Below, piece after piece: positions 1,311 through 64,000 of a stretch of DNA of 64,000 bases. This DNA is from a virus (lineage: Duplodnaviria; Heunggongvirae; Uroviricota; Caudoviricetes). The position numbers were made by a program, and so were the translations under genes. The notes under the pieces are model-generated. The model saw only the letters and a program-made list of their open reading frames with translations, was not told where the DNA came from and searched no databases. The stretch is taken from IMG/VR virus record IMGVR_UViG_3300037313_001331; one strand, 5' to 3'. Every line of letters begins with the position of its first letter. Within the stretch, counting starts at the first letter, position 1.

Positions 1311-1946
1311 CTACAACGTGGCGGCGAATGCGACCAGGGCCTCGTCGTTCTTCAGGCCGGTGGCAGCTTCGGCTTTCGCCATGAGGTTGGTGATTGCGAT
1401 CTGGCCGGCGGCCGAGATGTCCTTGAACCCGAAGGCCCGGGCCAGCGACACCTTCGACGCGGCGGCGGTCTCGATGCGGGTCTCGATGTCGGCCCGCTGC
1501 TCGGCGACCACCTTGTCCATGTCGTCGACGAATGCGCCCGGGTTGATGGCCCCCAGGTCGGCGTCGAGGAACTCCAGCTCCTTCGCGTCGAAGATGCCGG
1601 TGAGGTCCATGTCGATAGCCGCCAGCTCCGCCTTCAGCATCTCGGGGTCGATGTCGGAGATCGCCACGCGGTTGTCGGCGACCCGGGCGGCCTTGACCTG
1701 GTCGTCGCTCAGGTCGTCGCGCACCAGCACCGGCACCTTGTCCAGGCCCAGCTCGATGGCGGCCAGGCGCCGGCCGTGCCCCTTGATGATGATGCCGTGC
1801 TTGTCCACGACGATGGGCACGTCCCAGCCGAAGCGCTTGATCGACTCGACGATCTTCTTGACCTGGTCCTTCTCGTGCTTCTTGGAGTTCAGCTCGTATG
1901 GGATCAGGTCCTTGACCGGACGCATTTCCAGCTTCGGGGTCTTCAT
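1311..1946 (-). CDS. ParB-like nuclease domain protein
   Basis: ParB N-terminal-like block KDLIPYELNSKKH...GHGRRLAAIELG; start at MKTPK with RBS. Confidence 0.7.
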   Translation of the reverse strand: MKTPKLEMRPVKDLIPYELNSKKHEKDQVKKIVESIKRFGWDVPIVVDKHGIIIKGHGRRLAAIELGLDKVPVLVRDDLSDDQVKAARVADNRVAISDIDPEMLKAELAAIDMDLTGIFDAKELEFLDADLGAINPGAFVDDMDKVVAEQRADIETRIETAAASKVSLARAFGFKDISAAGQIAITNLMAKAEAATGLKNDEALVAFAATL

Positions 1947-2323
1947 GCGTCGGCCCTCCCGTTCAGCGTTGCGCAAGCGAAGCACTCGTAGCGGGCACGG
2001 CCGAGAAACACGCTGCCGCAGCGGTTGCAGTTGAGCGTGTCCTTGCGCCCTTCCTTCACGTCCGATGGCCAGTCGCGCGGTGTCAGCGTCGGTTCTGCCG
2101 GGGTCTTCTCGACCTCGAACAGCGCGACGCCCCCCGGGAAGTCGGGATCGGGTGCGATCACGAACTCGGCCGGCTTCCCGTCACGCGGGTTGAGCACGGA
2201 CAGGTAGATCTCGCCCTTGTCGTTGCCGCCGAACGCTGTGATCTTGGCGCCTACCAGGCGCCAGATGACGTGGTCACCGTAGTCGGCTTCTGCCTGCTCG
2301 GCCGGGTTCAGTGCGTCGCTCAT
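1943..2323 (-). CDS. hypothetical protein with C-terminal Cys zinc-ribbon-like motif
   Basis: ORF with CNRCG...CFAC; ATGA overlap with downstream gene. Confidence 0.5.
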   Translation of the reverse strand: MSDALNPAEQAEADYGDHVIWRLVGAKITAFGGNDKGEIYLSVLNPRDGKPAEFVIAPDPDFPGGVALFEVEKTPAEPTLTPRDWPSDVKEGRKDTLNCNRCGSVFLGRARYECFACATLNGRADA

Positions 2324-2326
2324 GAC

Positions 2327-2551
2327 TCAGAAGAAGGTGGGTTTGGCCACGGCGCGGGTCAGCGCCATCAGACCGGTCTGGAAGTCGGTGGCGCCGATGG
2401 ACACCCAGCGCTGATCGAGGTTCGGCGTGGCACGCAGCCGCTCGATGAGCGCGCCCAGCTCGGCTCCCTTGGCCTTGATCTCGTTCATCAGGTCGATCTC
2501 GACCTGGTCCAGCTCGCGGTAGCCCGCGATCTTTCGGTGTTGGTTGTCCAT
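2327..2551 (-). CDS. hypothetical protein (74 aa)
   Basis: start MDNQHRK overlaps stop of upstream gene (TGATG). Confidence 0.5.
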   Translation of the reverse strand: MDNQHRKIAGYRELDQVEIDLMNEIKAKGAELGALIERLRATPNLDQRWVSIGATDFQTGLMALTRAVAKPTFF

Positions 2552-2748
2552 CAGCTCTTTCCTCCTTGAATGCACGCGAGCACGACTCGCGGCGGTTGTT
2601 GTGTTTCTTGCTGCACGAGGTCGCCGACATCGCGCCGGGCGTCATCGATGCTGTAGCCCTCGTAGTCCTTCGGGAACTCGACGTAGTAGCTGGTCACCGA
2701 CCCGTCGGCACGACGCGCACCGATCAGTGCCCTCACGGTTTCGCTCAT
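2551..2748 (-). CDS. hypothetical protein (65 aa)
   Basis: MSETVRAL start at ATG 2748 overlapping stop of upstream small ORF (ATGA). Confidence 0.5.
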   Translation of the reverse strand: MSETVRALIGARRADGSVTSYYVEFPKDYEGYSIDDARRDVGDLVQQETQQPPRVVLACIQGGKS

Positions 2749-2912
2749 TGGGGCACCTCGATCAATTCGTTGCGCACGCGCATGAACCCGTCTTCGCCGA
2801 TCTCGATGAGCGATTCGTCCAGCTCGTAGCCGTCGGCGTTGTCGCAGTCCCCGCACACCACCGGGTCCTCGCGGTGGAGGCAGCTGTTGCAGCTCGGGAA
2901 CTTGTCGCTCAC
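2745..2912 (-). CDS. small Cys-rich zinc-ribbon-like protein (55 aa)
   Basis: manually translated: GTG start after GAGG SD, CNSC...CGDC, ends in ATGA overlap; below ORF-track cutoff. Confidence 0.4.
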   Translation of the reverse strand: MSDKFPSCNSCLHREDPVVCGDCDNADGYELDESLIEIGEDGFMRVRNELIEVPQ

Positions 2913-3580
2913 ATCACCTCCCGGGCGGCGCTCACAATGGCCACCAGCGCCATGCCGGCTGCGACCATCGAGTCCTCTTCGGCCTTGAAGCCGTTGGTCT
3001 TCACCACGTGGGAGATGAAGGCCTCGACGCGCGCCTGGTCCTCGACGGGCACCTTGAAGCGCATCAGGGCGTGGGTGATGGTTGGGCGCTCGGGCTTTTC
3101 CAGCGTGGGGATGGTTTCCTCGCCCTTCTCTTCGTCATCGAGGCCCAGCATGTCGAGGTCGATGCTGTCGGCCGCGAAGATGCCGGCCAAGTCCTGCTCG
3201 GTGTAGGGCAGGAACTTGGTCACGTCCTCCCCACCCAGGTCCTTCAGGATCTCGCCCAGCTTCAGCGCGTCGTCCTCGCCATACCGGCCGTTGTCGGCCA
3301 GGCCGATGGCCTTGGCTTGGCTGTCAGGGATGTGGCCCAGGTTGACGTAGGGCACCTCAGCAATGCCCATGCGCTGGGCGGCCCGGGTGCGGTGCTCGCC
3401 GCCGAGGATCTGCAGCGACCCATCGGGCAGCTCGCGCACAACAATGGGCTTGTAGAAGCCCATGCGCCGAATGCTCTCTTCGAGTCGGGCCTCCATTTCA
3501 GGACCCACCACGTTGCTGTTCCAAGGGTTGGGAAGCAACGTCGCGGGCGCTGCGTATCGAATCTCGATGCGGCTTGTCAT
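2909..3580 (-). CDS. ParB/Srx-like nuclease domain protein (second copy)
   Basis: LLPNPWNSN...ILGGEHRTRAAQRMG ParB-like N-terminal motifs. Confidence 0.65.
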   Translation of the reverse strand: MTSRIEIRYAAPATLLPNPWNSNVVGPEMEARLEESIRRMGFYKPIVVRELPDGSLQILGGEHRTRAAQRMGIAEVPYVNLGHIPDSQAKAIGLADNGRYGEDDALKLGEILKDLGGEDVTKFLPYTEQDLAGIFAADSIDLDMLGLDDEEKGEETIPTLEKPERPTITHALMRFKVPVEDQARVEAFISHVVKTNGFKAEEDSMVAAGMALVAIVSAAREVM

Positions 3581-3604
3581 TGGTCTAGGTATAAGGGATA
3601 CTCA

Positions 3605-3616
3605 GTCAGTGCTGAC
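3605..3616. promoter_or_regulatory. class A box
   Basis: GTCAGTGCTGAC after GGTATAAGGG in the divergent promoter region for the helicase. Confidence 0.5.
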
Positions 3617-3658
3617 TGATTAAATGTATAAGCAAACTGCGCCGATTGGCAAGCCTCA

Positions 3659-5383
3659 ATGATTCGGATCGCTCACAACGCAACAACCGCCAAGCTCTTC
3701 GACGCTGATCGCGACGCGAAGCTCGAAGTCCACCGGCTGCTGAGCTACCGCGTTGAGGGCTCCGAACACATGGCCGCCTTCAAGAGCGGTGGATGGAACG
3801 GCCGCGCGTCGTTCTTCGACTTCGCCAAGGGCACCTTCCCCACCGGCTTCGTCCGCCTGGTCGCGCAAGGGCTGCGCAAGAAGGGCTACGACATCCAGAT
3901 CGTCGCCAAGCCGCGGCCGGAGCCCCTGGGCCCGGAGAGGCCCGTTGTGGATCCCTTCGGCTACACGGAGCGCTACGACTACCAGCCCGCTGCCGTGGAC
4001 CAACTGGTGCGGCACGGCAACATCACCGTTCAGGTGGCCACCGGCGGCGGCAAGTCGCGCATCGCGCGCATGGCCTACAAGCGGATCGACCGCCCCACCC
4101 TCTTCCTCACCACGCGCGGCGTGCTGCTCCACCAGATGAAGGAGGCGGTCGAGGGCATGGGCGAAGAGGTCGCCGTGCTCGGCGACGGTGATTGGGGCAT
4201 CCCGTACACCCGGCCCGACGGAAAACAGGGCCGCCGCATCACGAAATTCGTCGTTGGCATGGTCCAGACGCTGGCTCAGCGCTTGGAGATCATCTCCGTC
4301 GACGGCGAACTCGAAGCCTTGACCGCCAGGCGCGACGCCGCCGAGTCAAAAGCGGTCGCCAAGCTGAAGGAAGACCTGAAGCAGCAAGGAATCACCGATT
4401 CCGAGGTCGTGCGCACGCGCTGCATCGCCCTTCTCGAAGGAATCACCTCGAAGTACCCCTCCAAAGAGCAGGATCGAGCGGAAATCACCGCCAAGGTCGC
4501 TCGGCACGAGCGGCTGCGGCTGGCCACCATCGAAATCCTCGCCCGTTTCGAGCTGGTGATCGCGGAAGAAGCTCACGAGGTGTCTGGCAACTCGTTCTAC
4601 GCGGTGATGAGTGCTTGCCGCAACGCGCACTACCGCATGGCGCTCACCGCCACGCCCTTCATGAAGGACGATGAAGAGGCGAACATGAAGCTGCTCGCGT
4701 GCTGCGGGCCGGTGGCGATCCGGATCACCGAGAAGATGCTGATCGACCGCGGCATCCTGGCGCGGCCGTACTTCAAGTTCCTGAAGCTGGACCCGTCGAA
4801 GAAGCCCAAGGGCATCTTCCGCACAACGGGCTGGCCGCGTGCCTATGAGCTTGGCATCGTGAAGAACGAATACCGCAACAAGCTCTTCTGCGTGGAGATG
4901 CTGCGTGGCATCAAGTACGGGCTGAACGGAATGATCCTGGTGACGCACAAGGCGCACGGGAAGATCTTCCTCGACATGCTGCGCAAGGCGGGCGCCCGGG
5001 CCGAGTTCATCTGGGGCGAGGACGACCAGGCCGGCCGGAAGGCGGCACTGCGCCGGCTCGGCAACGGCGAGATCGACGTGCTCATTGGGACCTCGATCAT
5101 GGACGTGGGCGTGGACGTGCCCAGTCTGGGCATCGTCGCGCTCGCCGGCGGCGGCAAGGCTGAGGTGGCAACGCGGCAGCGCATCGGCCGCGGGCTGCGC
5201 GAGAAGAAGGGCAAGCTGCCGAACGTCGCCTTCATCGTCGACGCGGCCGACAGCGACAACACGCACCTGGCGCGGCACGCGCGTGAGCGCCGGGCGATCA
5301 TCGAGGGAACGCCGGGCTTCGCCGAGGGCATCGTCGACGACTTCGACTACGTCGGCCTCGGGCTGGAGCGTCTGGCAGCGTGA
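3659..5383 (+). CDS. SF2 DEAD/DEAH-box helicase
   Basis: Walker A VATGGGKS, DEAH-like AEEAHE, TATP motif III, helicase-C motifs GTSIMDVGVDV and RQRIGRGLR. Confidence 0.85.
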   Translation: MIRIAHNATTAKLFDADRDAKLEVHRLLSYRVEGSEHMAAFKSGGWNGRASFFDFAKGTFPTGFVRLVAQGLRKKGYDIQIVAKPRPEPLGPERPVVDPFGYTERYDYQPAAVDQLVRHGNITVQVATGGGKSRIARMAYKRIDRPTLFLTTRGVLLHQMKEAVEGMGEEVAVLGDGDWGIPYTRPDGKQGRRITKFVVGMVQTLAQRLEIISVDGELEALTARRDAAESKAVAKLKEDLKQQGITDSEVVRTRCIALLEGITSKYPSKEQDRAEITAKVARHERLRLATIEILARFELVIAEEAHEVSGNSFYAVMSACRNAHYRMALTATPFMKDDEEANMKLLACCGPVAIRITEKMLIDRGILARPYFKFLKLDPSKKPKGIFRTTGWPRAYELGIVKNEYRNKLFCVEMLRGIKYGLNGMILVTHKAHGKIFLDMLRKAGARAEFIWGEDDQAGRKAALRRLGNGEIDVLIGTSIMDVGVDVPSLGIVALAGGGKAEVATRQRIGRGLREKKGKLPNVAFIVDAADSDNTHLARHARERRAIIEGTPGFAEGIVDDFDYVGLGLERLAA

Positions 5384-5414
5384 TTTCTTGACGCCGTGGG
5401 CGGCATCCGCCACA

Positions 5415-5426
5415 GTCAGTAGTGAC
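5415..5426. promoter_or_regulatory. class A box
   Basis: GTCAGTAGTGAC 19 nt before ATG 5445. Confidence 0.5.
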
Positions 5427-5444
5427 TAACAACAGGACCCGCCT

Positions 5445-22021: not shown

Positions 22022-22419
22022 CGCGCGACCTCCGTGCGGACGTTCGCGCTGGTGACGGTGTAGTGGTCCATGTGACCCGGGCCTTGACACCAGCCGTTCT
22101 GTGCAAGGGCTGTCATGCGGGCTTCGACCTCCCAGGGCTCCAGGCTCGAAGCCTCAAGCCAGGTCCGCACCTGCTTTGTGGCCAGCTCCTCGGTCGCGAA
22201 GGCCCAGGCGCCCTGGTGCTCGTTTCCGTTCTCCACATCCCACGAGAGGATGTAGACCTCCGCCGGCTGGTTCACCCCTTTGAGGATGAACTCCACCTCC
22301 TCCTCGGTGGCTCCGTCGAGCTTTCCGACCAGCTCATGATCGCCGGCGATGAGGTACCAGGTGTCCATCCGGCGCTTTGACCGATCAGCCCGCAAGGGGA
22401 GTGTGAATGGCGCGCTCAT
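22018..22419 (-). CDS. hypothetical protein
   Basis: class A box, then GGAGAATGC, then ATG. Confidence 0.5.
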   Translation of the reverse strand: MSAPFTLPLRADRSKRRMDTWYLIAGDHELVGKLDGATEEEVEFILKGVNQPAEVYILSWDVENGNEHQGAWAFATEELATKQVRTWLEASSLEPWEVEARMTALAQNGWCQGPGHMDHYTVTSANVRTEVAR

Positions 22420-24737: not shown

Positions 24738-25964
24738 ATGCCCCGTCACACCCTCGTCGCCACCACTTTGAAGGCGAAGATCGAAGCCGCACTGGCGGCT
24801 GCCAAGGACTCCCAGAAGGCCCAGAAGCTGGGCGACGGCGACGGGCTGATGCTGGTGGCCCGCCCCAGCGGCGATGCCTCGTGGGTGCTGCGGTACCGCC
24901 AGGATGGTGCACGAAAGGACCTGACCCTGGGCCGGTGGCCAACGCTGACCCTGAAGATGGCGCGGGACGAAGCGGACAAGGCCCGCAAGTCTGCCGCCAC
25001 CGGCGTCGACCCGGTCGAGGCGAAGAAGGCGGCCCGCAAAGCGCGCCCCGGCGTGGCATCGGGCCCGGACACGGTCAGGCGGCTCTTCGAGGACTGGCGG
25101 GCCAAGGAAGAGGTCAGCGCCGTCTACGCCGGCAACATCGAGGCGGCGTTCCTGAAGGACGTGCTGCCTGTCATCGGCGCCGTGCCACCCGAGGACGTGA
25201 CCCGCGAGCAGATCCTGAAAATCCTGCGGACCATCGAAGGCCGGGGCGCCGTCGACATGGTCCGCCGGGTTCGCATGTGGATGCGGCAGATGTTCGAGTT
25301 CGGCATCGAGGACGAGAGCCGCCCTGCCCTGCGCATGTCGCCGGTGCCGATGGGGACGCTGAAGTCCTTCAAGAAGTCACGCAAGAAGCGGCACTACGCG
25401 GCCATCAAGGACGCCAAGGAGGTGCCGGCGCTGATGAAGGCGATCAAGGGCATCACGGACAACTTTGTCATCCGGAACGCCTTCCTGCTGTCGGCGCACA
25501 CGTTCCAGCGGCCGACCGAGATTCGCGAGGCGACCTGGGACGAGTTCGACCTGGACGCAGGCATCTGGCGCATCCCCGCGGAGCGCATGAAGCTGGCCGG
25601 CGAGCACTGGGTGCCGCTGTCGCGCCAGGTGGTGGAGATCCTGCGCGTGCACAAGGGCGTGGTGGGAGATCAGGGCTGGCTGTTCCCGGGCCGGAAGTAC
25701 GGCCAGTCCATCTCCGAGGGCACGCTCACCGGCCGCCTGAACAACATGGGGTTCGAGGGCCGTCACACGCCTCACGGGTTCCGCGCGATGGCGCGGACCA
25801 TCGGTGAAGAGGTCCTGCACATCGACGCCAAGTACCTGGAGAAGCAGCTTTCACACGAGGTCGATGTGAGCGGGCTGCGGGGCGCCTACAACCGGGCGGA
25901 GTACTGGGACCAGCGGGTCAAGATGATGCAGAAGTGGTCGGACTGGCTGGACGCTCAGACATGA
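24738..25964 (+). CDS. int: tyrosine integrase (P4-like, N-terminal arm-binding domain)
   Basis: N-terminus GDGDGLMLVARPSGDASWVLRYR; C-terminal HGFRAMARTIG...RAEYWDQR catalytic region. Confidence 0.85.
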   Translation: MPRHTLVATTLKAKIEAALAAAKDSQKAQKLGDGDGLMLVARPSGDASWVLRYRQDGARKDLTLGRWPTLTLKMARDEADKARKSAATGVDPVEAKKAARKARPGVASGPDTVRRLFEDWRAKEEVSAVYAGNIEAAFLKDVLPVIGAVPPEDVTREQILKILRTIEGRGAVDMVRRVRMWMRQMFEFGIEDESRPALRMSPVPMGTLKSFKKSRKKRHYAAIKDAKEVPALMKAIKGITDNFVIRNAFLLSAHTFQRPTEIREATWDEFDLDAGIWRIPAERMKLAGEHWVPLSRQVVEILRVHKGVVGDQGWLFPGRKYGQSISEGTLTGRLNNMGFEGRHTPHGFRAMARTIGEEVLHIDAKYLEKQLSHEVDVSGLRGAYNRAEYWDQRVKMMQKWSDWLDAQT

Positions 25965-26121: not shown

Positions 26122-26134
26122 GGCTCACAACTCA

Positions 26135-26160
26135 GTCAGTACTGAGTCATTATAGGGAGC
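26135..26160 (-). promoter_or_regulatory. class A box plus conserved -10-like box
   Basis: minus strand GGCTCCCTATAATGACTCAGTACTGACTGAG upstream of alpA. Confidence 0.5.
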
Positions 26161-57142: not shown

Positions 57143-57652
57143 CTATTCGGACGACTTCGCAGCGCCGCCAGACATCGCGTCCAGCATCCGCTCGCGATTG
57201 GCCTGGTTGACAGCGACCCGCAGGCCACCCTCCTTCTCCTTCGCTGCGTCCCGGGCGATCTGCAGGAGCATGTCCTTGCGGTGCTCGAAGGATCGCTCAG
57301 CGACTTCGGCCAGGCGGTATTCCTGCTGAGCGTCGATCAGCTGCGCGTAGGCGCGACGGTACCGGGCGTCCAGCACCAGCGCGGCACGAATCTGCCCCTC
57401 GGTGGTCTTGGGGTTTTCTTCCTTCAGCTTCAGACGGTATTCGCCATCCAGCTTGCCTTCGAGGATCTCGACCGCCACCTTGTACCGCTCGTACTGGCGC
57501 TTCGCCCGCACGGTCCGCGTGGCGTAGAACACGTACAGCGCGGAGTGCTGCGCCATGTTCCCGCTCAGGTCGGTCAGGTCGATGGAAATGTCCTTCTTCA
57601 GCTGCTCCGGGTCGACGTATGCCGTCATCGCGGTTTCTGCGGCTTCGCTCAT
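57143..57652 (-). CDS. hypothetical protein
   Basis: AGGAGAG SD; ATGA overlap with the dnaE stop. Confidence 0.5.
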   Translation of the reverse strand: MSEAAETAMTAYVDPEQLKKDISIDLTDLSGNMAQHSALYVFYATRTVRAKRQYERYKVAVEILEGKLDGEYRLKLKEENPKTTEGQIRAALVLDARYRRAYAQLIDAQQEYRLAEVAERSFEHRKDMLLQIARDAAKEKEGGLRVAVNQANRERMLDAMSGGAAKSSE

Positions 57653-60600
57653 GTCAGTAGCTCTCCTAGTTTCTCGAACGTGTTCTCGATCAGCCGGACC
57701 TTCGAGGGGTCATGGAAGACTGATCCGGGGTGAATGCCGAAGATGACGGTTGCATCCAGGTCGGCGCGATAGATGACCTTGCCGGCCAGGTCCGCCGGCG
57801 TGCCCTTGATGCCCGGCGCGAACCAGCGCACCGCGTTGCTGCCCATCGCGATGATGATGGGCGGCTTCAGAATCTCGATCTCCTGCTCCAGGTACTTGGA
57901 GCATCCGATGATCTGCTCGTTGGTCAGGGCCTTCTGCTCTTTCGGCTTCGACACCTTCACCAGCGACGTGTAGTAGCCGTCGGAGGCCCGGAGGCCCACG
58001 TCCTTCAGAGCCGCCTTCACCGCTTCGGAGGCCTTGCCTTCCAGCATCTTGCCGGCGCGCTCCTCTTCCCAGCTGGGTGTGTCGAACACCATCATGAACC
58101 GCGGCTTGTCGCCCATGCGCGGCAGCGGGTGCGGCTTGCCCTTGAGCGAGCACCCCTCACATGCGCGGGCCTCCTCGACCAGGCGGGTGATCTTGATCTT
58201 GGCCAAGTGCTCCGCATTCAGCTCGCGGTCGGGGCGCACCATTTCGACGGTGAAGCCCGGCACCAGTGCAATGCGGTCTTTCAACCGGTCGGGGTGCGTC
58301 GCGGGCTTGCCCTCACCGGTGATCGAGTGGAGTGCCCCGACCTTCTCCAGGTTCTCCAGGTGCTTGCTGTTGACGGCGGTCCGCCCCAGCACCTCCTTCT
58401 GGGTCTCCTGGTCCAGCCCGCGGATGTGCGCCGGCACCTCCACGATCTTCACCTTGGTCTTGAGCGGCACTTCCTTCGTGCTCACCGGCACCCAGGTGAA
58501 TCTGCCGCCCACGTGGGCGCGCAGCTTCTCGATGGCAGCGGCCACGCCCGAGCTGATGCCCTTGATGGCCTGCAGGGGCGCGTACAGCTTGTCCTCGCCC
58601 TCGATCTCAACCCGGGCGCTCGAACGGTTCAGGTCAGGCGGCAGGACCTGCAGCTTCTTCCCCTGGGCATCAAGCACCAGGCCCGCCAGCTTCTCGTCCT
58701 TGTCGACCACCGTCATCGCCGCGGCGAAGAATTCGGCGGGGTAGTACACCTTCAGCCACATCGTCACCCAGCTGATGAGCGAGTACTCGTAGGAGTGCGA
58801 CTTGTTGAAGGAGTATGCCGCGTAGCCCTCGATGGAGGTCCACAGCGACTCGGCCTTGTGCTCTTCCCATTCGGAGTGGTCGACGCAGCCCTTGATGAAC
58901 TTGTCCTTGAACTCGGCCATCTTCTCGGCGTCCTTCTTGCCGATGGCCTTTCGCACACCGTCTGCTTCGCCCGGCGTGAAGCCCGCGAGCACCCGGCAGA
59001 CCTGCATCACCTGCTCCTGGTACGCCATCACCCCGTAGGTTTCAGACAGCACCGGCTCCAGCTTCGGGTGGTCGTAGTACGGCCGCGTGGCTCCCTGCTT
59101 CACCTGGACGTAGCGGTCACAGAGGCCGGCGTCCAGCGGGCCCGGCCGGAAGAGCGCGGTTGCGGCGCAGATGTCGTCGAACGTGAGCGGCCCGCCCAGT
59201 GCCAGCTGCTTCAGCAGGTTCTTCATGCCGCCGCCCTCGAACTGGAACACGCCGGTGGTGTCGCCCTTCGCGAATGCCTCCAGCACCCGCTTGTCGTCAA
59301 GCGGCAGGGAAAGCATGTCGATGGTCTTGTGGTGACGCTCGCGGATGTACTCCAGCGCCGTCTCGACCATGTCCAGAGTGCTGAGGCCCAGAATGTCGAT
59401 CTTGATCAGGCCAAAGTCCTCGACCTTGGTCTTGTCCCACTGCACGATCGGCAGGGTGCTGCCATCCTTGTCACCGCGGGTGGACACCACGGCCCGGTTC
59501 ACCACCGGCTCGCCGGCGACGACCACGCCCGCGGCGTGTTGCGACAGCGAGCGGTTGGCGCCCTCCAGGCGCAGCGCATAGTCCCACAGGATCGGCCGCT
59601 CGTTCTTGAACTTCTCGATGTCGGGCACGCGTTCGGCGGACTCGGTCAGGCTCAGCGAGACACCGTGCTCCTTTTCCATCTGCTTCGAGCAGGCGTACTC
59701 CCATGGATCCAGGTCATGCAGGCGCGCGGTGTCGCGCAGCGCCGACGCCGGGCCCAGAGTGGAGAAGTTGACGATGCCGGCAACGCGGTCGTGCCCCCAC
59801 TTGTTGCGGATGTAGTCGATGACCATGTGGCGCTTGCCGGACATGAAGTCGAGGTCGGCGTCGGGAAGGTCCACGCGGTCGGGGTTGATGAAGCGCTCGA
59901 ACAGCAGGCCGAAACGGATGGGGTCGATGTCAGTGATGCCCATCAGGTAGGCGACCAGAGACCCGCCCACGGAGCCGCGCCCGGGGCCGACGCGCACGCC
60001 GTTTTCCTTGCTCCAGTTGACGATGTCCTGCACCAGCAGGAAGTAGCCGCTGAAGCCCATCTTCTTCAGGACGCCCAGCTCGAATGCCAGGCGCTCCCGG
60101 TACGGTCCGTCCAGGTCCTCGCGGCTCGGGGCGTGGCCCCAGACCTCGCGACCGAAGCGTTTGCCCCAGCCGGCCTTCACTGCGGCCAGCAGCGCGGTGA
60201 ACTCGTCGTCAGCCATCTTGGGCATGGTCGGCTGCAGCTTCTTGAAGACGAAGCTGCAGCCGGCCGGGATCAGCTTGGCGTTCTCGACCAGCGAGAGCAC
60301 CCGACCGCTGCCAACCTGGTCGCGCAGCTTCTTGCACTCCTCCACCATGTCCTTCGCTGACAGCAGGCACATGTTGCGCACGTAGGGGCGCGGCAGAAAG
60401 ATCGAATGGGCGGACGTGTTGCTGCTGATGGCGCGCAGCACGTCGGTGGCATTCGCGTCCTCGGGCGTGGCGTAGAACGCCGGCCGAGTGACGATCATGG
60501 TCTGCAGGTAGGCGTCGCCCACCTCGAACGCCTTGCGGTTCAGACGGTTGAACAGCGGCGTGTCCAGCGCCACCAGCTCGATGATGTAGTCGCGGCCGAA

Positions 60601-61074
60601 CCGGGCGGACAGCTGCGCGCTGATCGAGGTGGCGTCCTCGCGGTGCCACAGGTTGTAGATGTCGCCGGTCGTGACGATCACGTCCTCCAGCGCCAGCACG
60701 TCGGCCAGACCCAGGCGGGCGTGGTAGTAGTAGTGCTCGGGCGTGAGCGACTTCGTGAGGGCCGCGAACAGACTCTGCATGCCCTTGTCGGACTTCACGT
60801 AGACCTTCAGGCGGTAGCCGCCGTTCTCGCGGTCCTTGAGCTTCGCCGTCGGATCGTCCACCACCTGGATGGTGCACCCGACAATGGGCGTGATGCCGGC
60901 CTTCTTGCATTTCTCGGCGAAGAACGGCATCGACGCGACGCTCATGTAGTCCGCGAGCGCGATGTGCGTGTAGCCCAGCTCCTTCGCGCGGTCGACGATC
61001 TTGCCGACCTGGAAGCTGGACTCGCCCAGCGAGAAGTCGGAGCGAACCGACAGTGCGATCTGCAGCGGATTCAA
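57649..61074 (-). CDS. dnaE: DNA polymerase III alpha (DnaE) fused to a C-terminal family-4 UDG-like domain
   Basis: PHP domain and palm GPGRGSVGGSLVAYLMGITDIDP; C-terminal ~190 aa with GIHPGSV (HPS-like) motif; TTG start after GGAGAAG, overlapping upstream TGA (TTGA). Confidence 0.85.
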   Translation of the reverse strand: MNPLQIALSVRSDFSLGESSFQVGKIVDRAKELGYTHIALADYMSVASMPFFAEKCKKAGITPIVGCTIQVVDDPTAKLKDRENGGYRLKVYVKSDKGMQSLFAALTKSLTPEHYYYHARLGLADVLALEDVIVTTGDIYNLWHREDATSISAQLSARFGRDYIIELVALDTPLFNRLNRKAFEVGDAYLQTMIVTRPAFYATPEDANATDVLRAISSNTSAHSIFLPRPYVRNMCLLSAKDMVEECKKLRDQVGSGRVLSLVENAKLIPAGCSFVFKKLQPTMPKMADDEFTALLAAVKAGWGKRFGREVWGHAPSREDLDGPYRERLAFELGVLKKMGFSGYFLLVQDIVNWSKENGVRVGPGRGSVGGSLVAYLMGITDIDPIRFGLLFERFINPDRVDLPDADLDFMSGKRHMVIDYIRNKWGHDRVAGIVNFSTLGPASALRDTARLHDLDPWEYACSKQMEKEHGVSLSLTESAERVPDIEKFKNERPILWDYALRLEGANRSLSQHAAGVVVAGEPVVNRAVVSTRGDKDGSTLPIVQWDKTKVEDFGLIKIDILGLSTLDMVETALEYIRERHHKTIDMLSLPLDDKRVLEAFAKGDTTGVFQFEGGGMKNLLKQLALGGPLTFDDICAATALFRPGPLDAGLCDRYVQVKQGATRPYYDHPKLEPVLSETYGVMAYQEQVMQVCRVLAGFTPGEADGVRKAIGKKDAEKMAEFKDKFIKGCVDHSEWEEHKAESLWTSIEGYAAYSFNKSHSYEYSLISWVTMWLKVYYPAEFFAAAMTVVDKDEKLAGLVLDAQGKKLQVLPPDLNRSSARVEIEGEDKLYAPLQAIKGISSGVAAAIEKLRAHVGGRFTWVPVSTKEVPLKTKVKIVEVPAHIRGLDQETQKEVLGRTAVNSKHLENLEKVGALHSITGEGKPATHPDRLKDRIALVPGFTVEMVRPDRELNAEHLAKIKITRLVEEARACEGCSLKGKPHPLPRMGDKPRFMMVFDTPSWEEERAGKMLEGKASEAVKAALKDVGLRASDGYYTSLVKVSKPKEQKALTNEQIIGCSKYLEQEIEILKPPIIIAMGSNAVRWFAPGIKGTPADLAGKVIYRADLDATVIFGIHPGSVFHDPSKVRLIENTFEKLGELLT

Positions 61075-61280
61075 GGCGTCTTCTCCAGCGGCACGACGAC
61101 ACCCTTGAAGATGTCCGCGTACTTCACCGCGCTGCCGATTGACATCGGCACACTGAACCGAGGTGGAATGCAGTCGTCGTAGCGAACGCGTGCTTTTGGC
61201 CACCAGTGAGGCTCGTGCCCGCGGAGACCGTTGTGACAAAAGAAACCCATTCGCCCGAGAAGAAGCCAGATCTTGAACAT
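61071..61280 (-). CDS. small ORF translationally coupled to dnaE
   Basis: ATG 5 nt after class A box plus ACACA; no SD. Confidence 0.35.
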   Translation of the reverse strand: MFKIWLLLGRMGFFCHNGLRGHEPHWWPKARVRYDDCIPPRFSVPMSIGSAVKYADIFKGVVVPLEKTP

Positions 61281-61285
61281 TGTGT

Positions 61286-61297
61286 GTCAGTGGTGAC
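61286..61297. promoter_or_regulatory. class A box
   Basis: minus strand GTCACCACTGACACACA directly followed by ATG 61280. Confidence 0.5.
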
Positions 61298-61306
61298 TGA
61301 GTCTTT

Positions 61307-61912
61307 TCATGATAGTGCCCGCGTGGGGTTGGATGTGAAATGCAACGCCCCATTCAGCTCACAAACCAGTTGCCCGGCGAGGAAGATCGCCACCGCATCG
61401 GAGACCTTCACCTTGGCGCTACTGGGCGCCATGCCCAGCTCTGCCTGGAAGGCGAATGCCAAGCGCGCTCGGGACCATCCGCCCTCCAGCAGGGCCCGCA
61501 CCATGATGTGTCGCCAGCCCTTCGCCGCGGGGTTTCGGCCCGCCTGCATTTCCGCACGCACGTGGTCGAACCAGCCACACTCGAAGCCCCGACGGATCTG
61601 ACTCTGCACGCGCTTGGGCGCGGCGTCGATCACCTGCTGTTCGCCCGCGGTGATGCTGACGCGCGTGACGCCCCGGGTGCTCGCCGTGATCGTTCTGTCG
61701 GGGACCTCCCCACCCTGCTTCGCTGGCGAACCCTGCAGCAGCTTCGCTGCGAGCACAAGGTCCTGGCGTGCACGACGCACGCCAGCTTCATCGGGAAGCT
61801 TCGCCAGCACCCGACGTGCAACCGACACGCACGCCGCCGAGTGCGAACAGGCGCCACACGTTGTCGATGTGGCGCTGACGTAGACCGGAGAACCGTAGCA
61901 GGTGGGCGTCAA
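61307..61912 (-). CDS. Cys-rich protein coupled to the sigma factor (candidate anti-sigma)
   Basis: TTG start overlapping the sigma stop (TTGA); CYG...TTCGACSHSAAC cluster; function inferred from context only. Confidence 0.4.
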   Translation of the reverse strand: MTPTCYGSPVYVSATSTTCGACSHSAACVSVARRVLAKLPDEAGVRRARQDLVLAAKLLQGSPAKQGGEVPDRTITASTRGVTRVSITAGEQQVIDAAPKRVQSQIRRGFECGWFDHVRAEMQAGRNPAAKGWRHIMVRALLEGGWSRARLAFAFQAELGMAPSSAKVKVSDAVAIFLAGQLVCELNGALHFTSNPTRALS

Positions 61913-62592
61913 GCGGCTTTGTCCGAGAGCGTCTTGCGCAGGCCTCCGATGGGTGCCCACTGCACGTCGAACTTGGCGAGGATCTCGCGCTTGACCTGGC
62001 GCAGCTCTTCGCCAGCCAGACCGATCTCGGTACACAGCTCGCGAAGCTTGCGGCCACCGGTGCCGCGCTCCTTCTCGTCGAGCATCAGTGCCGTCACCAG
62101 GCGGCGAGCGCCCGGGGACAAGGATGCCAGGCGCTCACGCACGGCATCGCGGTGGTCGAGGCGGTCCTCTTCGGAATCATCCATCTGGTCGCCGGCCAGC
62201 AGCTCCAACGGGTCGCCCTCCGCCTCTGCGCCCACGACTTCCTCGTAGCTGACCAGGCCCAGCTCGGCACGCTCCTTCTCGGGCTTCTCGATGTAGGCGT
62301 TGAAGAAGCGCCACGCGACGGTCTGACAGTAGCTGGAGAAGTAGGTGCCGCGGTCGGCGGACCAGCTGCGAGCCGCCTGGACGTAGCCCAGGTTCAGCAC
62401 GCTCATGCAGTCGTCCAGCTCCATGCCCAGCCCCATGGCCTCCACCCGCCGGAATGCCTTGATGGCCATGCCCTTCAACATGCCCTGGACGGACTCGTAG
62501 GAGCCATCGTTCGCGTAGCGCTTGTTCTTCTCCTCCCGAACGCGAGTGGTGCGCGGCTTCAGGACAACGACGGTGGGGGAAACTGCTTGCAT
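61909..62592 (-). CDS. sigma-70-family RNA polymerase sigma factor
   Basis: region-2-like RGTYFSSYCQTVAWRFFNAYI and region-4 HTH LRELCTEIGLAGEELRQVKREILAKF; AAGGA SD. Confidence 0.7.
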   Translation of the reverse strand: MQAVSPTVVVLKPRTTRVREEKNKRYANDGSYESVQGMLKGMAIKAFRRVEAMGLGMELDDCMSVLNLGYVQAARSWSADRGTYFSSYCQTVAWRFFNAYIEKPEKERAELGLVSYEEVVGAEAEGDPLELLAGDQMDDSEEDRLDHRDAVRERLASLSPGARRLVTALMLDEKERGTGGRKLRELCTEIGLAGEELRQVKREILAKFDVQWAPIGGLRKTLSDKAA

Positions 62593-62616
62593 GGGACTGA
62601 TCCTTGAGTCGAAAAA

Positions 62617-63786
62617 TTACTTGCCGAAAACGCGCTTGGCGACCTGGTCCGCGACTTCGCGGTCCACCGTCGACAGACGGTTGATGAAGGCCTTCTGCAG
62701 GCCCAGGTGGTAGTTGTTGTGGGCGTACCCGTACATGCCAGCGTTGATCAGCGAACGCGGCGAGATCGGGTTGGACAGCTTGGACGAGTCGAACTCCTGG
62801 CGCACTCGGGTGGCAAAGTCGACGAGCAGCTTCGCGTCCTCGGGCGGGATGTCCGACTGCAGGGCGACCAGTCGCTCCTCCAGCGCCTTCTCCATGTAGG
62901 GCATCTTCTCGACGATGCCGAAGCGCTCGAAGTTGGCGGCGTTCTGGATCGTGGTGCCCTGGTACAGGCCGGTCTCATCGCCCTGCCCGTTCGTGTTGCC
63001 CGTTGCGACGATGCGGAAGTCCGGATGCGGCTTCACGACCCGCATCGAGGTGTCAGCTTCCTTGATGAACAGCGGCTTGCCTTCCAGCACCGCCTGGTAC
63101 ACGGCGAGCACCTCCGGGCGCCCGAAGTCGTACTCGTCGGCGATGTACAGCCACCCGTACTTCATCGCCATGGGCAACGGCCCGTACTCGAAGAACGTGT
63201 GACCATCGCGCAGACGCCACCCGCCGACGATGTGCTCCTCTTCCATGTTGGCGGTGTGCTGCACACGCACGGTGGGGCGTCGCGTGCGTGCCGCGACCTG
63301 CTCGAAGATGGTGGTCTTGCCGGTACCCGAGTGACCCCAGAGGAACGTCGGGATGTTCATCTCCAGCCCGAACATCAGCGACTTGAGCACGTCCAGGTTG
63401 AAGACGTAGTTGGGGTCGACTGCCGGCACCATGTCGGAGAACTCGGGCGTGTCCGGCATGACGGAGATTTTGATCGGCTCGCCCTTGCTGCTGAGCGCCG
63501 CCTTGACCTTGCCCAGGCCGAAGACTTCGTGGAAGTTTTTCTTCATGGACGTGGCCACCGGGGTGGAAGATGTGTCAGTACTGACTGAGCTTGCAAGCGC
63601 TCGCTTTTCCAGCTCTGCCTTTGCGATGTCGCTCAGCAGCGGCGCACCGGGAAACTCCTTCTCGTAGTCCTTGAGGGTGTACCCCTCGGCGGCGTGGTCC
63701 TTCGCGATGTGCAGCTGAATCGAGTGGACCTTTGCGCCACACTTCATGCACTTGATCTTGGTGTCTTCCGTGGTGCCCTTGCTCAT
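62617..63786 (-). CDS. AAA+ ATPase (MoxR/CobS-like) with N-terminal zinc ribbon
   Basis: Walker A LWGHSGTGKTT, Walker B LYIADEYD, N-terminal CMKCGAKVH; ATG after GGAGGA. Confidence 0.8.
   Translation of the reverse strand: MSKGTTEDTKIKCMKCGAKVHSIQLHIAKDHAAEGYTLKDYEKEFPGAPLLSDIAKAELEKRALASSVSTDTSSTPVATSMKKNFHEVFGLGKVKAALSSKGEPIKISVMPDTPEFSDMVPAVDPNYVFNLDVLKSLMFGLEMNIPTFLWGHSGTGKTTIFEQVAARTRRPTVRVQHTANMEEEHIVGGWRLRDGHTFFEYGPLPMAMKYGWLYIADEYDFGRPEVLAVYQAVLEGKPLFIKEADTSMRVVKPHPDFRIVATGNTNGQGDETGLYQGTTIQNAANFERFGIVEKMPYMEKALEERLVALQSDIPPEDAKLLVDFATRVRQEFDSSKLSNPISPRSLINAGMYGYAHNNYHLGLQKAFINRLSTVDREVADQVAKRVFGK
63574..63585. promoter_or_regulatory. class A box inside the AAA+ ATPase CDS
   Basis: GTCAGTACTGAC within codons for SSVSTDTS, about 30 nt before an in-frame Met. 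Confidence 0.4.
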
Positions 63787-63817
63787 CAAATCCTCCGGTT
63801 CACAATGTTTGTCGCGG

Positions 63818-63850
63818 GGTTGCGATGGTTGAATCTTCGCCCCTACATCT
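63818..63850 (-). promoter_or_regulatory. class B box copy 8
   Basis: GTTGCGATGGTTGAATCTTCGCCCC; about 30 nt before the AAA+ ATPase ATG. Confidence 0.5.
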
Positions 63851-63863
63851 TGGACATCATACA

Positions 63864-63875
63864 GTCAGCGCTGAC
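63864..63875. promoter_or_regulatory. class A box
   Basis: GTCAGCGCTGAC upstream of class B copy 8. Confidence 0.45.
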
Positions 63876-63876
63876 T

Positions 63877-64000
63877 AATTGTTCATCACGAAAGAAGAAC
63901 TTTCGTGAGTTGTGCCATGACGGTTGTCGGCAGGCTGCCCAGGTCGTCCAGCACGACGTGCTTGTCGTAGTAGTAGCGGACCGACTCCGTCTGAATCCCG
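63877..64000 (-). CDS. partial CDS (C-terminal end)
   Basis: open frame running off the window edge; class B and class A boxes lie downstream of it. Confidence 0.3.

Follow-up and report, generated by a model that had tools for sequence, protein, structure and literature searches.

Among bacterial extracytoplasmic function (ECF) sigma factors, a gene that directly follows the sigma gene and overlaps its stop codon usually marks an anti-sigma factor, and an acidic character is typical of anti-sigma factors that cover the surfaces by which sigma contacts DNA and core enzyme. WhiB-like (Wbl) proteins bind region 4 of the primary sigma factor, and WhiB7 adds a DNA-binding tail to this contact. 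The cysteine spacing C-x2-C-x5-C is a signature of [4Fe-4S] sites in WhiB-like, FNR, EndoIII/MutY and AddB/Dna2/Cas4 proteins, and the winged helix is the commonest prokaryotic DNA-binding fold. Here we describe a pair of overlapping genes in a 64,000-nucleotide stretch of a Caudoviricetes virus (IMG/VR record IMGVR_UViG_3300037313_001331; the whole stretch is referred to below as the window), which encode a sigma-70-family factor and a partner protein named p2. The new point is that this phage sigma is always accompanied by a protein of an uncharacterised family, from Rhizobium to Stenotrophomonas/Xanthomonas phages and in many metagenomic relatives. A literature search found no description of the pairing of a sigma factor with this protein of family PHROG 3616, of its Cys4 motif or of its winged helix. 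We suggest that p2 probably works together with sigma, and we assign a probability of roughly 0.4 to the reading that p2 is a positive or DNA-binding co-factor of the phage sigma.

The features of the pair, including those taken from AlphaFold2 (AF2) models, are the following.

61909..62592, minus strand: phage sigma-70-family factor, 227 aa (sigma2, acidic linker, sigma4)
62260..62499, minus strand: sigma domain 2, residues 32-111, regions 2.1-2.4 (RpoS alignment, AF2, Pfam scan of orthologues)
61969..62172, minus strand: sigma domain 4, residues 141-208, with the putative 4.2 helix-turn-helix GLAGEELRQVKREIL (full-length models and AF2)
61909..61912, minus strand: TTGA, the p2 TTG start (61912-61910) over the sigma TGA stop (61911-61909)
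61307..61912, minus strand: p2, 201 aa (Cys4 module at the N-terminus, basic helical middle, winged helix at the C-terminus; PHROG 3616, AF2)
61829..61900, minus strand: Cys4 motif C5-x13-C19-x2-C22-x5-C28, a candidate [4Fe-4S] or Zn site (58-sequence alignment)
61328..61519, minus strand: C-terminal winged-helix domain of p2, residues 132-195

Identity of the Sigma Factor

The open reading frame (ORF) 61909-62592 starts with ATG, preceded by AAGGA 9-13 nt upstream, and almost certainly encodes a divergent member of the sigma-70 family, as the initial annotation had proposed. All matches in the profile searches (NCBIfam and PDB) and in Foldseek were sigma factors. Eleven NCBIfam models matched the protein, and the best of them, TIGR02937 (sigma70-ECF superfamily), aligned end to end (sigma residues 32-208 against profile positions 7-161 of 165; E 6e-7, below cut-off). 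The sole relevant Pfam family was Sigma70_r2 (E 1.2e-3, 19 bits against a cut-off of 24), and PHROGs assigned the protein to family 351, "RNA polymerase sigma factor". A profile made from the window protein and six metagenomic homologues, 44-49% identical, retrieved 64 distinct PDB sequences at E up to 1, sigma factors without exception. The best match was RpoS (E 4e-7; residues 39-105 against RpoS 106-170), with an alignment spanning regions 2.1-2.4 (LxDLIxEGNLGLxxAxxKFxPxxGxRFSTY) and a weak second stretch at the 4.2 helix-turn-helix. The region 2 recognised earlier was thus found again: RGTYFSSYCQTVAWRFFNAYI is present in the ORF, and the profiles pair it with GFRFSTYATWWIRQ of RpoS region 2.2-2.4.

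According to the AF2 model (predicted local distance difference test (pLDDT) 71 overall, 84-93 in domain 2), three long helices (32-111) are joined through an acidic, disordered stretch (115-138) to four further helices (141-207), so that the predicted architecture is sigma2-sigma4, with no sigma3. The top 50 Foldseek matches of this model in the PDB were sigma factors only (probability 0.95-1.0, E 1e-3 to 1e-2), aligned over ~220 columns; the TM-scores were low (~0.25) because the two sigma domains are placed differently in the free model.

For the putative region-4 helix-turn-helix reported earlier, support came from full-length comparisons and from the fold. The RpoS, RpoH, SigB and RpoD_Cterm models align sigma residues 113-208 with their own C-terminal regions (region 3.2-4.2; TIGR02394 E 1e-5), and the model places helices at 141-156, 160-176, 183-190 and 194-207. 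Sigma70_r2 was the only Pfam family in 10/10 sigma orthologues scanned (the upstream genes in relatives), five of them above the gathering score, and Pfam Sigma70_r4 was matched neither by the window sigma nor by these 10 orthologues. Two results weigh against the identification as a whole: the window sigma scores under the curated cut-offs of both Pfam and NCBIfam, and its C-terminal domain alone gave nothing significant against the PDB (RpoS E 1.2). Since this lone-domain search is weak, the assignment of region 4 is based on the full-length models, position and fold.

The sigma also has a conserved, clade-specific N-terminal motif, KNxxYANDGSYESV. All six homologues lack its 15-residue C-terminal tail APIGGLRKTLSDKAA (61909-61953, minus strand) and stop at ...FGV(R/Q/K)Wx; in the window this tail occupies the stretch up to the overlapping p2 TTG. 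In the JGI (Joint Genome Institute) annotation the identical protein appears as "DNA-directed RNA polymerase sigma subunit", and the homologue in Rhizobium phage RHph_N1_10 is listed in GenBank as "RNA polymerase sigma-70 factor protein". The sigma identity is therefore already known from existing annotation, and the sigma alone adds little.

Conserved Gene Order and Translational Coupling

The overlap of the p2 TTG with the sigma stop as TTGA, which had been noted in the initial annotation, recurs in related loci. Counted from the first base of the sigma stop, a p2 start codon falls at -7 to +4 nt in 13/13 loci examined, and nine of the 13 have an NTGA overlap, namely TTGA in the window, L001 and L016, GTGA in L005, L009, L013, L014 and L015, and ATGA in the Rhizobium phage. 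In one distant lineage, sigma and p2 are 53 nt apart. The gene order was compared over three JGI contigs, one Logan contig, eight IMG/VR contigs, Stenotrophomonas phage ANB28, RHph_N1_10 and four distant metagenomic members, the last of which keep the sigma-p2 order at 25-30% p2 identity. Sigma is found directly 5' of p2, and dnaE after p2, in every related locus having upstream DNA; this sigma-p2-DnaE order spans Stenotrophomonas to Rhizobium phages, and the CobT-CobS-sigma-p2-DnaE synteny is seen in all relatives. Locus L029, picked up by a sigma peptide pattern, contains neither sigma nor p2 and was discarded. On this comparative evidence, the TTGA is to be regarded as conserved translational coupling and not as an accident, which argues for sigma and p2 being made in a fixed proportion.

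The p2 frame is open 5' of the sigma stop, and a sigma-p2 fusion made by programmed -1 frameshifting was considered and rejected. A slippery heptamer is absent, the frame relation and spacing vary by locus (+2, +4, -4 nt and the 53-nt gap), and a GC content of 64% is itself expected to leave long alternative frames open.

The position of p2 between sigma and dnaE allows another reading, in which p2 is a protein of DNA replication or metabolism (for example, an origin- or replisome-associated Fe-S winged-helix protein) that belongs with dnaE, and its adjacency to sigma reflects operon packing. The spacing on the two sides of p2 bears on this. The coupling to the sigma stop is the more constant one, present at all 13 loci, whereas the distance between p2 and dnaE is variable, up to two genes and ~230 nt. 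In addition, the Pfam, PDB and fold searches show no likeness of p2 to a known replication protein. We consider this reading improbable.

The p2 Family and Its Cysteine Motif

By sequence, p2 matched only PHROG 3616 ("unknown function"), with E 3.3e-11 over residues 2-183 (profile 14-211 of 222); the p2 homologues of L001, L002 and ANB28 scored 2.7e-21, 2.1e-11 and 5.1e-15 against the same profile. Pfam and NCBIfam searches with the window p2 matched nothing. Over 58 members of the p2 family, Pfam gave no shared family, no anti-sigma model and no Whib, and the family profile found nothing significant among PDB sequences (best E 0.039 over 36 residues).

An exhaustive HMMER scan of 1.84 billion cluster representatives yielded 88 p2 relatives at E up to 1e-3 (50% identity representatives). 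P0045 and P0058 were dropped from these as long repetitive low-complexity proteins. The remaining relatives have ~50-230 aa, with the shortest resembling fragments or gene calls cut short, and none carries extra domains. A tblastn search of sigma and p2 against 50,697 phage records gave zero matches at 1e-3; the relatives were found via a cobS DNA match and via the ANB28 homologue. A word-index search with p2 returned p2 alone, the same search with the family alignment returned no annotated names, and a single-protein scan of genome contigs did not find a relative.

Two public records give p2 homologues a functional label. In phage BUCTxx99 the homologue (77996-78586) is called "recombinase", and in JGB6 (L008, 5941-6638) it is split into a "5'-3' exonuclease" and a "recombinase"; in the JGB6 record the dnaE and AAA genes are also in pieces, as if through frameshift errors. 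Profile searches give zero support to these labels, which are probably annotation errors. Elsewhere in public records p2 homologues are "hypothetical".

The initial annotation had placed a C-x17-C-x2-C-x5-C cluster near the p2 N-terminus. The cysteines are real and the string CYGSPVYVSATSTTCGACSHSAAC is present in p2, but the first spacing is x13 and not x17. The alignment of 58 full-length members shows no variation at C19, C22 and C28, and at least 90% of the sequences keep C5 and G7. The complete Cys4 motif occurs in 57/58 members, with the x13 spacing in 55, and the sole exception is an N-terminally truncated gene call. In-frame GTG codons lie 5' of the p2 TTG at 61960 and 62035, so the TTG is not the only possible start, and the JGI call of the window p2 (P0008, 167 aa) begins past the Cys cluster. 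The TTG or a nearby start is supported because both the Cys cluster and the start position near the sigma stop are conserved (13/13 loci), and this conservation shows that the longer form with the Cys cluster is the real one. The cysteine spacing points towards a [4Fe-4S]-type site and away from zinc ribbons (CxxC...CxxC).

For comparison with Wbl proteins, eight phage WhiB sequences were collected with M. tuberculosis WhiB1 as a query, which was validated by 1,136 WhiB-annotated phage matches. One of the 1,136 phage records with a WhiB-like tblastn match is listed under Stenotrophomonas, which is unexpected for a proteobacterial host. An hhalign comparison of the p2 N-terminus with the nine Wbl sequences gave a local match of 23 columns, covering C-x2-C-x5-C and the following helix, with a probability of 43%; the first Cys was left unaligned. 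Judging by these alignments, the likeness of p2 to WhiB is a resemblance of motif and not family membership.

This resemblance bears on the possibility that p2 targets the host: in the manner of AsiA or WhiB, it would bind region 4 of host sigma-70 (or core RNA polymerase) and shut down or remodel host-sigma transcription as the phage sigma takes over. Co-expression would then be logical, because phages with their own sigma often bring an inhibitor of the host-sigma holoenzyme: phiEco32 and 7-11 have a phage sigma plus an inhibitor of host RNA polymerase (PMC4331800), and AsiA of T4 is a phage inhibitor of the host-sigma holoenzyme (PMC7824862). The WhiB-like Cys spacing, given the local hhalign match, also fits. 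Nevertheless, homology to AsiA, gp79 or Wbl proteins is absent, Pfam Whib was matched by 0/58 members, and neither the G(V/I)WGG turn nor a structural match was seen. Moreover, such a protein would not have to be coupled strictly 1:1 with the phage sigma, and this role appears very improbable.

Fold and Charge of p2

The AF2 model of p2, built from the 58-sequence alignment, has a pLDDT of 91.5 and a predicted template modelling score (pTM) of 0.86. At the N-terminus, a coil with C5 leads to a short helix with C19, then to C22 and to a helix (25-37) that begins just before C28. In the middle part, a linker of lower confidence (pLDDT 62) connects a long helix (43-60) with a beta-hairpin and three helices (75-123). 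The C-terminal part, with helices at 132-179 and a beta-hairpin at 183-192, has the H-H-H-beta-hairpin topology and structural matches to winged-helix proteins, by which it is recognised as a winged helix. The best Foldseek match of p2 in the PDB had an E of only 0.25. The family is uniformly basic, with isoelectric points of 8.3-10.6 (median 9.4), and its positive charge is concentrated at residues 39-131. No transmembrane or hydrophobic segment was found in the p2 family.

These properties bear on the reading of the initial annotation, which saw here a candidate sigma/anti-sigma pair, with p2 reminiscent of zinc-binding anti-sigma (ZAS) domains. In such a scheme, p2 would be a cytoplasmic anti-sigma of the phage's own sigma, made 1:1 with it and keeping it silent until oxidation or loss of the Cys4 site, the onset of replication or another such signal frees late-gene transcription. 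The sigma-then-partner order with a 4-nt overlap is conserved in the clade, and the layout of p2 (a helical Cys module of ~60 aa, a flexible linker and a C-terminal domain) recalls the anti-sigma domain-linker-sensor arrangement of the ChrR/RsrA type. A delay device would also be sensible for a sigma made early alongside replication genes. However, the ZAS motif H-x3-C-x2-C is absent: T15 stands four positions before C19 in the window p2, T or S takes the place of the expected His, and a conserved His is absent in the family. No anti-sigma profile (Pfam, 0/58 members) or structure matched p2, a membrane anchor is absent, the protein is basic, and a winged helix forms its second domain. An inhibitory role has its only evidence in the order and overlap of the genes, and p2 is linked to dnaE just as tightly. 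The sigma and the conserved coupling of the earlier proposal thus stand, the resemblance to ZAS domains is not supported, and the anti-sigma role is a live rival that we do not favour and regard as rather doubtful.

Proposed Role of the Pair

Based on the above results, we suggest that the locus is a conserved two-gene transcription module in a clade of ~105-120-kb phages of Proteobacteria. Host RNA polymerase would transcribe cobT-cobS-sigma-p2-dnaE as an early or middle operon from a host-sigma-70-type promoter. Then p2 would be translated from the mRNA of sigma through the TTGA coupling, and the two proteins would form a complex. The phage sigma would displace the host sigma on the host core RNA polymerase and send the enzyme to phage promoters. 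In our preferred reading p2, binding both the phage sigma and nucleic acid, would act as a promoter-specificity or activator subunit and not as a classical anti-sigma, by analogy with WhiB7 and sigma-A region 4, MotA and sigma-70, and SPO1 gp33 and gp34. We lean to a nucleic-acid-binding co-factor because of the charge of p2, its winged helix and its centre of the Fe-S type. The analysis establishes that the first protein is a sigma factor, that the coupled pair is conserved and that p2 has the Cys motif and a winged-helix fold, while the contact between p2 and sigma, the kind of metal, the binding of DNA and the direction of regulation are inferences.

Several observations weigh against this role. 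The gene order and overlap match those of typical sigma/anti-sigma pairs. The p2 gene is equally tight to dnaE, at 0 to 4 nt in L020 and L019, and adjacency does not single out sigma as its partner because p2 is linked to dnaE as well. The sequence of the Cys4 site cannot tell Fe-S from Zn. Finally, the recognition helix and the wing of p2 are neutral on average, the charge sitting in the middle region; p2 therefore need not bind DNA in the canonical winged-helix manner, and proteins are the ligands of many winged helices.

If sigma and p2 do form a complex, p2 would be a sigma accessory subunit of a new kind, whether a co-activator or an anti-sigma with a structure new to that class. With p2, Fe-S-dependent control of the transcription programme may also be met for the first time in a phage of Proteobacteria. 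The pair is open to direct testing because Stenotrophomonas phage ANB28 and the Rhizobium phages RHph_N1_10 and RHEph10 are relatives in culture.

Neighbouring Genes and Phage Context

The following features surround the pair.

57649..61074, minus strand: DnaE-type DNA polymerase III alpha with a C-terminal domain like uracil-DNA glycosylase (UDG) (homologues with PHP, DNA_pol3_alpha and UDG Pfam matches)
62617..63789, minus strand: CobS-like AAA+ ATPase, probably of the same operon (Pfam AAA_5 1.6e-20, CbbQ_C; PHROG 249 5e-91)
63856..63885, minus strand: candidate sigma-70-like promoter TGAACA-18-TATGAT upstream of cobS (consensus scan)

The end of cobS is 24 nt from the sigma ATG. The promoter candidate was the one site found by the consensus scan of 60800-64000, against 0.4 expected, and its spacer holds the palindrome TCAGCGCTGA (63865-63874). 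No terminator-like site was seen in 60800-64000, and hence none through to dnaE.

The initial annotation had reported a second TTGA coupling at the dnaE start (61074). The probable DnaE TTG (61074-61072) does overlap the TGA of a 69-aa ORF (61071-61280), and the DnaE N-terminus read from this codon, MNPLQIALSVRSDF, matches the L001 homologue; the overlapped ORF, however, may be no gene but non-coding leader sequence. The small genes that relatives have in this place do not resemble it, and on the minus strand it begins 6 nt past the motif TCACCACTGACACACA. The dnaE frame is open 5' to an ATG at 61353, and the homologues favour the TTG at 61074. The window thus has a 233-nt gap between p2 and dnaE that holds this doubtful ORF; in other loci, one or two small ORFs lie between the two genes. 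DnaE has PHP, pol III alpha and finger domains and the UDG-like C-terminus, with homologues at 6531-9947 in L001 and 6233-9640 in L002. In L020, dnaE (1437-5436) is split by an HNH/NUMOD4 homing-endonuclease gene, and L005 has an intein (Hom_end_hint) within CobS (2732-4972).

The neighbourhood is a phage replication and recombination module, with genes for a gp32-like single-stranded DNA-binding protein, a RecA/UvsX-like protein, a 5'-3' exonuclease, an SbcC-like ATPase, a class II ribonucleotide reductase (RNR) and a UvsW-like helicase. Metagenome contigs at JGI, the longest of 110,897 bp, carry the identical sigma protein, and the phage has roughly 111 kb. Its nearest cultured relatives are the Stenotrophomonas phages ANB28 and BUCTxx99 (~108 kb), with a DNA match confined to part of cobS. 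The replication genes are T4-like. The phage may be temperate because a tyrosine integrase gene (Arm DNA-binding, Phage_int_M, Phage_integrase) lies at 24738-25964 on the plus strand.

Decamer and TATAAT Elements of the Window

Two kinds of short elements were found, with the following locations.

61287..61296, minus strand: decamer copy TCACCACTGA, followed by CACACA, directly 3' of the p2 stop
5700, plus strand; 57121, 50865, 40268, 34874 and 26154, minus strand: TATAAT hexamers

The decamer TCA(G/C)(C/T)ACTGA has 27 matches at no more than one mismatch against 5.1 expected, and 0/100 shuffles reached 27. Its sites include 1290, 3606, 9336, 15542, 19034, 22437, 26136, 36488, 40240, 42604, 50875, 54968, 57129, 61287, 63575 and 63865. 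They are mainly intergenic, 6-50 nt 5' of start codons (e.g., recA, gp32, RNR and the ORFs at 22419 and 3580), and the decamer often has CACACA behind it or extends to a palindrome (ACTCAGTCAGTACTGACTGAGT, 22 bp, 26130-26151). L002 has the same decamer between p2 and dnaE. In the close relatives L002, L012 and L015 the decamer is enriched and keeps its position between these two genes; ANB28 and the Rhizobium phage show no such enrichment. These decamers are probably the "boxes" for which the initial annotation had invoked a dedicated sigma.

Only six TATAAT hexamers occur in the 64-kb window of 64% GC, and 6/6 lie within ~25 nt of a decamer, on either side. Three of the six have the form GCTCCCTATAATG on the minus strand, whose plus-strand reading ATTATAGGGAGC looks T7-promoter-like. 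The decamer is a candidate operator or promoter element, and it suits an operator better than a core promoter element because its order relative to TATAAT is variable. For the same reason, and since the motif is palindromic, TCAGCACTGA was not established as the promoter of the window sigma.

A palindromic decamer would suit a dimeric winged-helix protein, but nothing in the current evidence links it to the window sigma or to p2. A far-reaching extension of the co-factor reading would make p2 a new family of [4Fe-4S] sigma-binding transcription factors, a functional Wbl analogue of independent origin or diverged beyond recognition. Its cluster domain would dock on region 4 of the phage sigma and its basic and winged-helix part on the palindromic TCAG(C/T)ACTGA, so that the redox, O2, NO or iron state of the infected cell would influence middle or late transcription. 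This we hold to be speculative and decidedly unlikely.

Comparison with Known Systems

The window sigma resembles ECF-type (group 4) sigmas and minimal phage sigmas (PHROG 351, e.g., phiEco32 gp36) in having sigma2 and sigma4 within ~200-230 aa. It also shares with them the end-to-end TIGR02937 match and a co-transcribed downstream gene over the stop codon. In contrast to these, its region 2 scores best with models of the RpoS/RpoD type and not with ECF subfamilies, and it differs from them by its scores under the curated cut-offs and by the clade-specific KNxxYANDGSYESV.

Like p2, the ZAS anti-sigmas RsrA, ChrR and RslA are soluble, contain cysteines, lie directly 3' of a small sigma to which they are coupled, and have an N-terminal helical module followed by a second domain. 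Unlike them, p2 has no H-x3-C-x2-C, no conserved His and no match in sequence or fold; it is basic and not acidic, and it ends in a winged helix.

The Wbl proteins WhiB1 and WhiB7 share with p2 the spacing C-xn-C-x2-C-x5-C, and a last Cys that sits at the start of a helix. However, p2 has no Pfam Whib match, no G(V/I)WGG turn and no listed fold match; its first Cys is only 13 residues off, it is about twice the size and carries a winged helix, and the hosts are Proteobacteria.

Winged-helix metalloregulators (Fur/PerR, ArsR/CzrA, MecI/BlaI) align with p2 only over the ~60-70-residue winged helix, at 3-16% identity. The domain order and Cys spacing of p2 differ from theirs, and its recognition helix and wing are not basic.

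Finally, in SPO1 gp34/gp33, T4 gp55/gp33 and T4 MotA/AsiA with sigma-70, a phage or appropriated sigma depends on another phage protein for the use of its promoters, and the genes lie in or near the replication module. The sequence and structure of p2 are unrelated to those of gp33, MotA and AsiA, co-factors that have no Cys4 centre.

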